From Eledone cirrhosa (taxonomy: Eukaryota): a stretch of DNA of 64,000 nt. Below are positions 35,805 to 47,326 of the stretch, in pieces. The DNA lies in NCBI GenBank assembly GCA_964016885.1, contig OZ024741.1, positions 223,758,001 through 223,822,000 of the forward strand. Direction: 5' to 3'. The notes under the pieces were generated by a model. The model saw nothing but the letters and a program-made list of their open reading frames with translations. It made no database searches and was not told where the DNA came from. Made by a program: the position numbers and the translations under genes. The stretch's first letter is position 1. Each line of letters begins with the position of its first letter.

Positions 35805-36294
35805 GAGATTACATGAAACAAAGTTCTGTTTAAATCATTTATTTGCTTACAATTGTTTCTTCCAAACCGAGGTTTGGAGTCTTCGGAGCAATTATTCAGT
35901 GATTTTTAACATACTTGACCTATGTAAATTACCATGCTATATTATTATGATGGATGTCAACCCACTGTGGGTCAATATATACATATGTTTCTATATGTTT
36001 CTTGTGTTGATAAGGAGGTCAAGTATGTTAAAAATCACTGAATAATTGCTCCGAAGACTCCAAACCTGGTTTGGAAGAAACAATTGTAAGCAAATAAATG
36101 ATTTAAACAGAACTTTGTTTCATGTAATCTCTATACAACTGCTCTGTAGAACAACGGATGTTGTTACATTGAGCTATTTATCTTACTGGTAATAAGATAG
36201 TAATAAATTACTGTCTTTCACTGTTTAGGGTATAAAATATATATAACTATAAAAGGTTTTAGTGTATACATAACCATAAATAGTATCCTTAATA
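35805..36294 (+). mobile_element. Fold-back hammerhead element, family X copy 1
   Basis: Arms 35805-35921 and 36015-36133. TTGCT-CCGAAGA-stem-GAAA-CAATTG-TA-AGCAA at 36046-36093 (+) and 35843-35891 (-); unpaired tail to 36294. Confidence 0.85.
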
Positions 36295-36953
36295 CTATAT
36301 ATATATATATATATATATATATATATATATAGAGAGAGAGAGAGAGAGAGATATATACATGTCTATACATACACATTCATACATACTACATATAAAGAAC
36401 AAACATTCTTATTCTCCCTCTCAGCATGCTGTAGGTAGGTTCCACAGATCATAATGGCCCCTAATGCACTGATTATTACAGTGAAACCTCTTTGCTAAAC
36501 GGAATGATGATGCCAAATGTCTGAGAGTATTTTGGAATCCGCCAATACTTACCGTGCTCAAAATTGATTGAAGTCTGGGGAGAATATTCTGACTTCTGCC
36601 AAACTAAGAACATAGCTTGAAGAACTGAATATATTCTATATTCAGGGTTGAATACTGGAATGTATTCTCTCTACTCTCATTGTGACAAACGTGTGTGTAG
36701 CATTGTGTGTGTATGTGTTTCTATCTGTGTGTGTGTGTGTGTGTGTGTGCATGTTTCTATGTATGTGTAGATCTATATATCTGTGTGCAAACATCTCTTT
36801 GAATGCATATATAAATATGTGTGTATGTATATGTGCAAATCATCATCATCATCGTCATTTTTGCATCCACTTTCCTGTGCCAGCATGGATTGGACAAGGT
36901 ATATTGAGACAATATTTACTAGCTGGATGCCTTTTATATATATATATATAAAT

Positions 36954-37765
36954 GGAAAAAATGAAACGACATTTCATTTCCCACTCTTAGTACGGCTGTT
37001 ACTTAAATATAAGTATGTATACGTACATACATATATGTATACAGACATACAGTAGTATGTATATATATATACATGCACACATACATATATGTACGTATGG
37101 ATTCACCGAACATTTATTATAATGCTCGGTGTGTTTGTAAACAAACATCCCGAATTAAGCTGTACAGTGTCTAGCAACCATCGCTGCTCGTTTGTTCAAC
37201 ACTGACAAAGGAACGCTGTACTAGTTTCAAGCTTATTAGCTATCGTCAGCAACGTATACCTTCCTGCCAGATAGTTGAACGTCTGAAAGTATATACTTTC
37301 CTTATGCATATTAACGGCTGAGTAGCCTAATTTGCATATCGAGTGAGTTAATCGGCCGGGTGCACCGAAAACGATAAACGGAAAAAATGAAACGAAATTT
37401 CATTTCTCACTCTTAGTACGGCTGTTACTTAAATATAAGTATGTATACGTACATATATGTATACAGACGTACAGTAGTATGTATATATATATATACTTTC
37501 AGACGTTCAACCATCTGGCAGGAAGGTATACATTGCTGACGATAGCTAATAAGCTTGAAACTAGTACAGCATTCCTTTGTCAGTATTGAACAAATGAGCA
37601 ACGATGGTTGCTAGACACTGTACGGCTTAATTCGGGATGTTTGTTTACAAACACACCGAGCATTATAATAAATGTTCGGTGAATCCATACGTACATATAT
37701 ATATATATATATACATACTACTTTACGTCTGTATACATATATGTATGTACGTATACATACTTATA
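36954..37765 (-). mobile_element. Fold-back hammerhead element with terminal redundancy (426-nt period)
   Basis: 37008-37295 is inverted at 37490-37765; direct repeat at 36954/37380. CTGACGA-AGCT/AGCT-GAAA-CTAG-TA at 37214-37254 (-) and 37531-37571 (+). Confidence 0.85.
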
Positions 37766-37784
37766 TATATATATATAATCATAT

Positions 37785-38125
37785 CATCATCATTGTCACC
37801 GTTTAAAGTCCACTTTTCCATGTTGGCATGGGTTTGTTGAGTTATCCTGTTGTGAGTAATGCTAGATCAGGTGACAATGTCATGCTCATACAGAACCGAT
37901 TTGGGCTTGGTTTTTACAACTAGATGCCCTTCCTCGTTCAACCTCGTTTACAGTGAGTACTGGGTGCTTTTTGTCTTGATGCCTACACAACCACTTTACA
38001 GTTTGGGCTGGCCGATTTTTGCCGTGACACCTACACAACCACTTCACAGTGTGGGCTGGAGGCTTCACTGGATGTAACTTCAGCTTGTCCTCATGGGAGA
38101 TGTATTGGAGTGGGTGGGGTGGTAT
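37785..38125 (-). mobile_element. Degenerate RTE 3' UTR
   Basis: (ATC)n, GATGCCCTTCCT; similar to 19830-20100. Confidence 0.75.
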
Positions 38126-38176
38126 ATACTATATATATGCTTCAGATACGACCTGGTCGTGTGGGAATATATTCCC

Positions 38177-38535
38177 TTCTTTCGCTGAAAAGAAGTAAGT
38201 GACAGTCACTACTTTAAAATCGATAGCGTATGGTCTTCAAAATGTTTTAAATTAAACATACAGTATATTGCCAAATATACTGTATATACATTCATGTATA
38301 CATCGCTATTTCAGAGCACCAATCCTAATACCTAATTTTTGCTGGACCGTCAATCGCTCTGTATAATCAGCTTCTATAATTTTCGGCGAAAGCAGGGAGT
38401 GCTTAGCTCTGATGATCGCCAAACAGCGATCTCTCTTCTTTCGCCGAAAAGAAGTAAGTGACATAGTCACTACTTTAAAACCGATAGTCTTCAAAATGTT
38501 TTTAATTAAACATACAGTATATTGCCAAATATATA
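38177..38535. repeat. ~100-bp direct repeat of unknown origin
   Basis: TTCTTTCGC(T/C)GAAAAGAAGTAAGTGACA..GTATATTGCCAAATATA at 38177 and 38437. Confidence 0.85.
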
Positions 38536-38542
38536 TATATAT

Positions 38543-39328
38543 ATCATCATCATCATCATCATCATTGTTTAACGTCCGTGTTCCACGCTTGCTTGGGTTT
38601 GGACGGGGGTTTTCCCACTTGAGGCAAGAGTGATTATCTTGCTCGCATAGGACTGTCTGGCGGGTTTTCTACAGCTGGATGCCCTTCCTAACACCAACCA
38701 CATTTACAGTGTGGGGCTGGGAGGTTTTTACCGTGTTGCCTACACGGCCACATTACAGCGTGGACTGTGTGTTTTTTTGACATGACACCTACACGATCTC
38801 ATTTGTTTCGGCCTGGATGTTGTGGCACCAACATAACTTTACATTGAAAGGGGCGGTGTGGATGGGGTGGGGGTGGTGGGACGGGGGTGTATTTTGTTAG
38901 AGATGCCTACTGACTGTAGTAGGTTTTACTTTGTATTTAGGTAAGGCGGGTCTTCTCTATTACTGAGTACCGCCAAAGGTCTCTGTCCAGTGACATTGTC
39001 TTGGAGAGGTGTAAGTGTGTGAGGTCGGAATTTATCAGCTCGTCCCAGGTTTTTCTAGGTCTGCCTATTCCGTGGCTACCGTCTATCTTTATTGCCCTGC
39101 ACTTTGTTATACAGCTATCGTCTTTCATGCGCATCACGTGACCATACCAACGTAGCCTTCTCTCGAGTAAACAACATCTGATCCCTCTTATTTCTAATTT
39201 TTTCCTTAGTTCGTTTATGCTTTGCCGTTCACGTATATTACTGTTACACATCCAGCGGAGCATGCAAGCTTCGTTTCTCTCTAGTCTGCGTATATCCTCT
39301 GCACACAATGACCAGGTCTCACTGCCAT
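38543..39328 (-). mobile_element. RTE LINE 3' part (GSETW to tail)
   Basis: [34 protein letters not shown], 3' UTR, (ATC)n at 38543. Confidence 0.95.
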
Positions 39329-45449: not shown

Positions 45450-45459
45450 CTTTAGATCA

Positions 45460-45730
45460 TGGCACCAAGTATTCCTAGGCCTTCCTCTTTTCCTTTTCTC
45501 CTGTGGATTCTTGGTCAAGGCTTGCCTTGTGGCAAGGCTTTTGGAAGGTGTGACCAATCCATATCCATCACCTCTAGATAGGCTGAATTCCCTGCCACAA
45601 TTCCTAATCATGTTTGACCTACTAATTCAAAGAATTTTCCTGAGGCATATGCTTACAAACATCTGTATATTTTCATGGTGGTAATAGTAGTACTCTAGAT
45701 CCCTGCCCCACAGAGCAAAACAGACCTGCC
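45460..45730 (-). mobile_element. Degenerate RTE C-terminal fragment (different family)
   Basis: Minus strand NPQEKRKRGRPRNTW. Confidence 0.6.
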
Positions 45731-45940
45731 AATTAAAAAAAATACCACCAAAAAGCTTAAGACACAAAAAGCTGGAACAAATATTAAAGGCATTTCATCT
45801 GATATCAACAATTCTACTAATCCACCACCTCAGACTCATAATGTATTTTATTGACCCTTCCCTCCTCCAAAATGAATGAAAGGATCACAATGGGATTTGA
45901 ACTCAGAGCACAGAAGCCTTTTATCCTATACTTTAAAGAC

Positions 45941-46067
45941 CAGGGCTGTATTATTCATAAGGCTGACTATCCTGAAGCCTAGAGGCCCCTGGGGGAATAG
46001 CAGTCCTGTAATGTTTTGGGGTTTTTTTTTGCTGTAGGGGACCCAGCCATGGGTTAATATGGCTCTG
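45941..46067. mobile_element. Small hAT-like MITE
   Basis: TIRs CAGGGCTGTATTA / TAATATGGCTCTG; target duplication unclear. Confidence 0.45.
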
Positions 46068-46584
46068 ATAATGTCTTTGCCAATTCGCTGAATAATGAAA
46101 AAAAATTGTGAATGGACAGCAAAAGCTTTCGATGTAAATAATACAGAGACATCTTAAACACAGTGTTTTAAGTCAGACAGAAAGAGAAAAGTAGACTTGT
46201 TTCTTTTTATTTTTTATCTCAAACCAGTCCATATAATGTTTAACACGATGATGATGAACAAAAATGTTTCTAACTCTTTTTTCCATTTCCTATCTTCCAT
46301 CCTCTCTCATTACAGATGATTTCTGAATAAATTCCTTATAATGTGTTTTAGACATTTATAACATAGATGTTAGATATAACATCTTTGCTCAAAAGTTTTA
46401 CATTTTTTTTTTTTTTTGATCTGCCAACAGACATATGGTTGACTTTATTAACTGGACATATGGTTGTCTTTTTTTATTTTCAACATGCATGCATAAACAT
46501 ATATACATGTTTATATATGCATACTTATATACATGTGTGTGTGTGTGTGTGTCAATATTTTTCTCTGTCTCTCTCATATATACA

Positions 46585-46671
46585 CAGGGTGCCCCCCCCC
46601 AAAAAAAAAATCTATACACACTTCAATAGCATTCTAATTAAAGTGTGTATACATTTTTGGGGTACACCCTG
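46585..46671. mobile_element. Tc1/mariner-type MITE
   Basis: CAGGGTG..AAAAA..TATACACACTT / AAGTGTGTATA..TTTTT..CACCCTG-TA. Confidence 0.65.
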
Positions 46672-46736
46672 TATATATATGTGTGTGCGTGTAAATATTT
46701 TTTCTGTCCCTCATATATATATATATATATACATAA

Positions 46737-47326
46737 TATTAAGGATACTATTTATGGTTATGTATATACTAAAACTTTTTATAGTTATATATATTTTAAA
46801 CCCTAAACAGTGAAGGTCAGTAATTTATTACTACCTTATTACCATAAGATAAATAGCTCAATGTAATAACATCAGTTGTTCTACAGAGCAATTATATAGA
46901 ATTCACAAGAATCAAAGCTATGTTCAACGCATTTATTCACTTACAATTGTTTCATCCAAACCTAGGCTTGGAGTCTTCGGAGCATTTTTCAATGTTTGTA
47001 CATATAATTGACCTCCTTTCCAACACAAGAGACATACAGATACATATATATATAGTGATGTACAGTGGAGTGACATATATTATATTATATTTCTGTATAG
47101 CAATTCAGAATTTTGAATTGCTATACAGAAATATAATATAATATATGTCACTCCACTGTACATCACTATATATATATGTATCTGTATGTCTCTTGTGTTG
47201 GAAAGGAGGTCAATTGTGTACAAACATTGAAAAATGCTCCGAAGACTCCAAGCCTAGGTTTGGATGAAACAATTGTAAGTGAATAAATGCGTTGAACATA
47301 GCTTTGATTCTTGTGAATTCTATATA
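46737..47326 (-). mobile_element. Fold-back hammerhead element, family X copy 2 (near-perfect ~434-bp palindrome plus tail)
   Basis: 46893-47326 is palindromic about ~47110. CCGAAGA-stem-GAAA-CAATTG-TA at 47235-47281 (+) and 46938-46984 (-). 46737-46892 is a reverse-complement homologue of 36133-36294. Confidence 0.9.

Follow-up and report, generated by a model that had tools for sequence, protein, structure and literature searches.

Head-to-head insertions of a Hydra-type Penelope-like element in Eledone cirrhosa: two fixed outer ends, a repeated motif and probable twin-primed reverse transcription

The 64,000-nucleotide (nt) stretch of the Eledone cirrhosa genome analysed here (the window; assembly GCA_964016885.1, contig OZ024741.1, positions 223,758,001 to 223,822,000, forward strand) contains two loci at which two pieces of one repeat family lie head to head, and both loci are 5'-truncated insertions of an autonomous Penelope-like element (PLE), termed family X. 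The arms of these insertions end at one of two sites in the element: an arm ending at site 1 is called a short (S) arm, an arm ending at site 2 a long (L) arm, and one that continues past a site a read-through arm. The features of the two loci are, in positions of the window:

35770..35803, no strand: (TA)n(GA)n run at the S end of copy 1
35804..35921, minus strand: S arm of copy 1, a 118-nt 5'-truncated piece of the element's 3' end, ending at site 1; subfamily A
35843..35891, minus strand: hammerhead-like motif of the copy 1 S arm, type I, with CCGAAGA core and palindromic helix III
35921..36298, plus strand: L arm of copy 1, 5'-truncated and ending at site 2, head-to-head with the S arm with an overlap of 1 nt
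36046..36093, plus strand: hammerhead-like motif of the copy 1 L arm
36137..36298, plus strand: tail of copy 1, 162 nt from site 1 to site 2, 5' untranslated region (UTR) in read-through copies, ending 45 nt before the start of the open reading frame (ORF)
36141..36174, plus strand: GCTC...TTGAGC motif of the copy 1 L arm, a predicted hairpin directly 3' of site 1
36296..36350, no strand: (TA)n(GA)n run at the L end of copy 1
46733..47112, minus strand: L arm of copy 2, ending at site 2; subfamily B
46856..46889, minus strand: GCTC...TTGAGC motif 3' of site 1, copy 2 L arm
46937..46985, minus strand: hammerhead-like motif of the copy 2 L arm
47112..47326, plus strand: S arm of copy 2, ending at site 1
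47234..47282, plus strand: hammerhead-like motif of the copy 2 S arm
47321..47738, no strand: (TA)n run at the S end of copy 2

An earlier note on this DNA, made from the letters alone, had described homologous pairs in opposite orientation at both loci, and the arm coordinates bear this out. As the note had held, the arms within each copy are nearly identical (117/118 positions in copy 1, 210/214 in copy 2) and the copies differ from each other, with 248/285 identical positions between the L arms from the hammerhead region to the end; copy 2 appears as a near-perfect palindrome because both of its arms extend almost equally far 5'. The core reads CCGAAGA in all four hammerhead-like motifs and stem I of copy 1 is indeed TTGCT/AGCAA, with the weaker ATGCT/AGTGA in copy 2. 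Both S arms end at TCT(ATA), followed by (CT)n(AT)n or (AT)n, and the L arms run 162 nt beyond this point, where about 160 nt had been given. The variants that the note took as copy-specific, however, are common to many other loci: they thus mark subfamilies A and B and not single copies, so that the argument built on them is invalid. Near relatives abound, with 3,026 first-look candidates for copy 1 and 3,573 for copy 2; the best 40 scored matches among these showed 96–97% identity to copy 1 and 97–98% to copy 2. A segmental duplication of the two loci, named beforehand as one case that would overturn the note's reading, is not what we found: the flanks lack collinear homology and share dispersed repeats only, and hence the loci are not duplicates of each other. 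Recent segmental duplications of family X insertions together with their flanks do exist elsewhere in the genome (L086, L088 and L096 within 120 kb; L034 and L035 within 33 kb). A search for the empty site in public sequencing runs returned contigs only, none spanning the locus.

Whilst the note had recognised the inverted structure, it missed the identity of the element, the second fixed end and the repeated motif. Family X comprises at least 6,264 arms in the genome, and its longer copies carry, 3 kb upstream, a single ORF with a reverse transcriptase (RT; motifs FIQFD, GLYRDD) together with, at the C-terminus, an endonuclease of GIY-YIG type (EN; IIY...YIG). The unit of ~4,234 nt is permuted, with the order hammerhead, site 1, 162 nt, site 2, 45 nt, ORF start, and it displays the traits of EN-bearing PLEs: pseudo-long terminal repeats (pLTRs) from partial tandems, an inverted 5'-truncated copy, a tail at one end and a hammerhead motif in the pLTR. 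With Pfam, the GIY-YIG match of the protein is weak (E 0.032) and the RT family is without a match; the protein has 840 homologues, nearly all unnamed. We place family X in the Hydra clade provisionally, on the basis of its motifs and of visual likeness to the Hydra proteins in the supplement of PMC8557442: the protein contains RVRWRTF (RWR, not RWK) and HADKT (RWK and ADKT in family Y, a sister family described below), the linker CNCRSNRTC (CxCx5C), CNLC..E and N..CQH, with a single Cys between GIY and YIG and no CCHH pair. The Hydra passages of PMC8557442, whose clade includes the octopus element Hydra-1_Obim, likewise describe RW(R/K), DKT, CxCx5C, CxxC and CxH around the E and N of the EN, no CCHH pair, (TA)n targeting, a hammerhead close to the 3' end in which the foot of stem II has unpaired bases and, for Penelope-13_HM, an inverted 5'-truncated copy at the 5' end. 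In accordance with the (TA)n insertion trait, 258/274 S and L ends adjoin a dinucleotide run or microsatellite. Unlike the Hydra families described there, which are generally under 3 kb, family X has a unit of ~4.2 kb with a long 3' UTR, and its two mapped ends and duplicated motif are without counterpart in those passages. An assignment to Neptune, our first reading, was dropped since the motifs fit the Hydra description of PMC8557442; the CX2-5CxxC linker and CCHH combination of Neptune and Nematis is not seen, and the EN is C-terminal where Naiad and Chlamys have it at the N-terminus. Non-LTR retrozymes, which are non-autonomous short hammerhead units arranged head-to-tail, are ruled out, as the copies truncate an ORF-bearing element and lie head-to-head.

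The note had claimed a shared inversion end-point, and this stands for the outer ends: these sit at two fixed sites 162 nt apart, but the inversion point itself, the inner junction, varies freely (arm lengths of 42–4,017 nt in 56 subfamily A pairs). Counting with exact patterns, which miss mutated copies, and one shared anchor, we found genome-wide 1,306 arms that stop at site 1 and 1,393 that read through, and 2,155 that stop at site 2 with 63 reading on into the ORF. Among 305 distinct ends from loci L001–L268, a set biased by the many loci picked on an end, 150 lie at site 1, 124 at site 2, 10 run into the ORF and 21 are elsewhere. The 27 ends from loci picked by position on the hammerhead core give the same picture: 23/24 non-read-through ends are found at the two sites, and the tabulation thereby supports the note's view of a programmed, non-random structure. 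About 40% of S ends carry (CT)n, up to 38 units (e.g. window 35790–35810), and L ends none. Duplication of the target does not account for these tracts (2/34 versus 3/41 with (TA)(GA)n on the opposite flank), and RT slippage is not claimed as their source, their frequency (17/44) not significantly exceeding the background of other TA-GA junctions (56/195; p 0.21).

The two kinds of end are moreover combined in a near-strict manner. Independent choice of arms would give about half mixed pairs; on one chromosome, 30/33 head-to-head neighbours within 10 kb are short-long, with 2 short-short and 1 long-long, and 26/31 head-to-head neighbours on the same chromosome join a short end to a read-through arm. 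In the fetched loci, 100/111 head-to-head pairs were classed as short-long (two of these proved to be short plus read-through), and both arms belong to one subfamily in 108/111. The inner junction follows no such rule: amongst the 56 subfamily A pairs, the L arm reaches further 5' in 32 and the S arm in 23, and 32 junctions overlap by 0–5 nt.

In order to compare arms with copies, 98 pairs were used (two duplicates removed from 100), 87 of which have at least 80 aligned columns. In 85/87 pairs, the distance between the two arms was smaller than that to the median arm among the other insertions of their subfamily. Of the non-majority variants shared by both arms, 504 are lineage variants seen elsewhere and 53 are private, an excess that argues for one source rather than for conversion; the unshared variants comprise 181 private and 301 of lineage class. 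Private variants per arm amount to 0.0076 in the paired region versus 0.0072 in the unpaired tail for subfamily A and 0.0089 versus 0.0105 for subfamily B, and arm divergence is independent of spacing (rho -0.10, p 0.36, n=87). This finer variant test agrees with the note in deriving both arms from one source lineage, and points to each insertion stemming from one source element with conversion playing a minor part.

A candidate for what selects the two sites emerges from comparison with two sister families of the same genome, Y and Z, which share 44–48% protein identity with X and also possess two ends each, spaced 110 nt apart in Y and 91 nt in Z. In all three families the pattern CTC[CT]-N6-26-TTGAG is found exactly twice per unit, 4–9 nt 3' of each end, as against 0 occurrences on the reverse strand and an expectation of 0.3 for a shuffled unit (4,234 nt scanned in X, 3,126 nt in Y and 1,767 nt in Z, all from one genome). 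The window insertions carry the copy next to site 1 and not its twin 3' of site 2; since the insertion stops short of the site-2 motif, any action of this copy would have to take place in a read-through template. Family Y (L033:287-3626; L299–L318) is a young Hydra-type PLE with copies 98–100% identical and a 783-residue open frame in L307; both ends are visible in 8/20 fetched loci and all 8 are short-long, with either arm able to be the main copy. Family Z (locus L320), a Hydra-type PLE for which a 29-nt anchor at the end matches exactly 39,175 times, has 78/87 non-read-through ends at the two motif sites, and 0/25 of its head-to-head pairs are short-short or long-long (11 short-long, the rest with read-through or unclassed ends). 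In folding predictions of the read-through region (z -4.0), both sites are single-stranded and followed by GCTC...GAGC stems. We take the repeated motif as the likely signal that sets, for either strand of the target, the point at which the enzyme begins to copy.

On the basis of these patterns, we consider twin target-primed reverse transcription the probable origin of the truncated head-to-head insertions, with both starts lying on one RNA and each defined by a motif. Each of the two nicked strands of the (TA)n target would prime a cDNA, one per site, on a single read-through RNA, and a presumed RT dimer would have each of its subunits placed by a CTC..TTGAG motif, the predicted hairpin immediately 3' of either site. 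How far 5' one cDNA extends would not depend on the other, and microhomology of 0–5 nt would link the inner ends, so that the 162 nt between the sites would form the PLE "tail" on one arm only. The strict short-long pairing agrees with a single RNA on which both sites are occupied; for the arms to overlap, either strand displacement or a tandem transcript contributing two units would be necessary. In L1 twin priming, both target nicks likewise prime on one RNA and the inverted segment is joined by microhomology; there, the internal position taken by the second primer varies and the segments are free of overlap, unlike family X, where both starts are fixed and the arms overlap.

Several observations weigh against this reading. 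Target-site duplications are unreadable inside (TA)n, many copies show a single arm in the stretch examined, and the pairing rule is broken in 3/33 and 5/31 pairs. The motif pattern was derived from X and Y and family Z was found via its site-2 copy, so that the site-1 copy and the end positions of Z are the independent tests. Support for the hairpin is thin: the CTC/GAG core is invariant, the outer pair is kept in 4/6 sites, one change being compensatory, and 3/4 isolated folds, those of X site 2 and of the two Y sites, have a minimum-energy structure other than the hairpin. The 301 unshared lineage-class variants may reflect recurrent mutation or mixed templates, and one RNA molecule and two RNAs of one source look alike in sequence.

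Of the alternatives, the least unlikely is that the ends are cut and not primed, the EN acting at two sites to resolve a longer DNA intermediate, either tandem or self-primed on an antisense template, with the motif as a DNA recognition signal. This predicts fixed ends and one source equally well, and both ends do lie in AT-rich sequence of the kind that the EN prefers; the passages of PMC8557442 on the tail ascribe it to EN-mediated resolution, those of PMC3846280 propose antisense-template self-priming for head-to-head repeats, and PMC11167929 recalls that the D. virilis tail is needed for EN recognition. Yet the spacer within the motif can be as short as 6 nt or as long as 26 nt, in contrast to a duplex protein-binding site, and the inner junctions are arbitrary, with 0–5 nt overlap and unequal reach of the arms, which is not the form of self-priming palindromes; in the anole element treated in PMC11167929, genomic ends also coincide with RT start sites. 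Slightly less probable still is twin priming on two separate RNAs that stem from one active source copy and that the two halves of the complex bind in different modes. Such a route would explain the sharing of lineage, would need no displacement of cDNA and could accommodate the 301 unshared lineage-class variants as some mixing of templates, but extra asymmetry is required to obtain one S and one L end in ~90% of pairs, and clear A/B chimeras number at most 3/111, two of which resemble neighbouring separate insertions.

The mechanism of the earlier note, one template with the S arm primed by an internal TATA annealing to (TA)n, is largely refuted as the selector of the site, and we regard it as improbable. 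Site 1 does read TCTATATA, nearly all ends adjoin a microsatellite as given above, and short base pairing may assist priming. However, the tail holds the longer ATATATATA tract and a second TATATA, both essentially unused (~1/305 ends for the two together), and site 2 offers a TA match of ~3 nt yet is used as often as site 1, with 2–3 nt at most end sites in families Y and Z. Fold-back, whether by a cDNA that snaps back to serve as its own template or by later conversion between the arms that evens out an inversion arisen by chance, is refuted as a general mechanism and very improbable, for although copy 2 is a near-perfect palindrome and 53 private variants are common to both arms, a snap-back cannot outreach its template as the S arm does in 23/56 pairs (20 of them with junction gaps of at most 20 nt), the tail is on the L arm only, private variants are unshared more often than shared (181 versus 53) without an effect of spacing on divergence, and the flanks of the two loci are unrelated.

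The hammerhead-like motif of family X takes a type I fold with palindromic helix III, and Rfam returned no match for it at the gathering threshold. It departs from the canonical core (C3 U4 G5 A6 N7 G8 A9 with paired 10.1-11.1): genome-wide, the cores comprise 6,264 CCGA, 118 CTGA and 103 CCAA, position 4 thus being C in 6,264 arms versus U in 118, and the base of stem II is unpaired and variable (C-A, C-U, A-G and others). A subfamily with a canonical core was considered and rejected, since the CTGA counts (57; 118) match those of the opposite-strand CpG decay product CCAA (40; 103), and the CTGA copies are therefore what CpG decay gives. Hammerhead cleavage as the process that sets the ends was also rejected: a single arm stops at the predicted cleavage site, and 4,905 run through. 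This one arm, followed by (TA)n (L126 / L379, G000:C2:85366730), has a canonical CTGA core and is a single case. The U4C core is hence fixed in family X and does not set the ends; the U4C hammerhead is probably slow, protein-assisted or structural. Families Y and Z have the CTGA core, as do all Hydra rows that were compared in the hammerhead table of PMC8557442; the family Y hammerhead shows an apparent stem II loop of ~100 nt. The same core change is known from a viroid hammerhead, where according to work cited in PMC3088659 it is slower in vitro and sufficient in vivo. In family X, unlike the viroid, U4C is fixed in thousands of retroelement copies and occurs together with a stem II base that is variable and unpaired, and with a palindromic helix III, for which a dimer is needed. 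The relevant passages of PMC4209133 describe metazoan PLE hammerheads as weak and of dimer type, and note opposite-strand pairs 100–700 bp apart. A head-to-head pair of another family lies at 37081–37704 of the window, with 215-nt arms 96% identical and a hammerhead of canonical CTGACGA core and palindromic helix III that is present once on the minus strand (37249) and once on the plus strand (37536); 12 variants of this motif were seen across the fetched loci.

The window contains further repeats. At 10529–10748, a short inverted pair lies between (TA)n and (TG)n runs and is 77–82% like locus L326, possibly as a truncated PLE insertion; 20699–22009 and 24760–26070 form a 1.3-kb inverted repeat of 75% complementarity around a long (TA)n array, and 40224–40843 holds six tandem copies of 103 nt each with a 97% match. 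Positions 35607–35671 and 48397–48843 are pieces of a very high-copy short repeat, which we take to be like a short interspersed element.

Much of the setting of these findings is already in print: inverted copies, one-sided tails, (TA)n targeting, pLTR hammerheads and octopus Hydra elements. Among the close known systems is the anole Poseidon element PAc, which according to the sections of PMC11167929 drawn on here nicks and extends both target strands in vitro, initiates at two internal points on either side of the tail and has been modelled in dimeric form; the mechanism that we favour builds on that work. As in our reading of family X, two internal RT starts bound the tail, both strands are used, a read-through template is required, hammerhead cleavage is dispensable and a dimer is predicted; PAc differs in belonging to another clade and in starting inside the ORF, where family X starts in the 5' UTR, and the main text of that paper assigns no start per insertion arm and reports no repeated motif. 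Penelope of D. virilis and Adineta Pen2a resemble family X in their head-to-head inverted copy with extension at one end (passages of PMC3846280 and PMC8557442). Their tails, however, measure 30–40 nt versus 162, 110 and 91 nt here, and the near-strict rule of one short and one long arm, with either arm bearing the tail, sets the present families apart from what those passages describe. The published explanation of tail and inverted copy is antisense self-priming (PMC3846280) or EN resolution (PMC8557442). Our literature searches, which covered subscription papers thinly, returned no pairing rule, no tails of 91–162 nt, no duplicated start motif and no family-wide U4C core; the portion of PMC13282606 consulted mentions neither Hydra elements nor hammerheads.

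The origin of the inverted repeats and one-sided tails of PLEs is named as open in PMC8557442, and the later steps of insertion are left unvalidated in PMC11167929, as far as the consulted passages of each go. The long tails of the present families make the two starts easy to resolve, and the pairing rule, the independent 5' reach and the motif in three families yield a specific model that is open to direct mutational tests. The fixation of U4C in more than 6,000 arms is a natural test of whether PLEs need ribozyme cutting. A broader proposition, which we advance tentatively and at somewhat less than even confidence, is that the RNA start signal of Hydra-clade PLEs is duplicated, so that both subunits of an RT dimer are loaded onto a single transcript and two overlapping cDNAs build the insertion inward from the two target ends. 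If true, the duplicated start signal would make a single event account for both the PLE tail and the head-to-head inverted repeat, and a portable motif would predict the ends of elements; family X would have inserted in this manner thousands of times with a core-mutant ribozyme. With the exact end matches of family Z alone numbering 39,175, such a mechanism would have shaped much of the Eledone cirrhosa genome.

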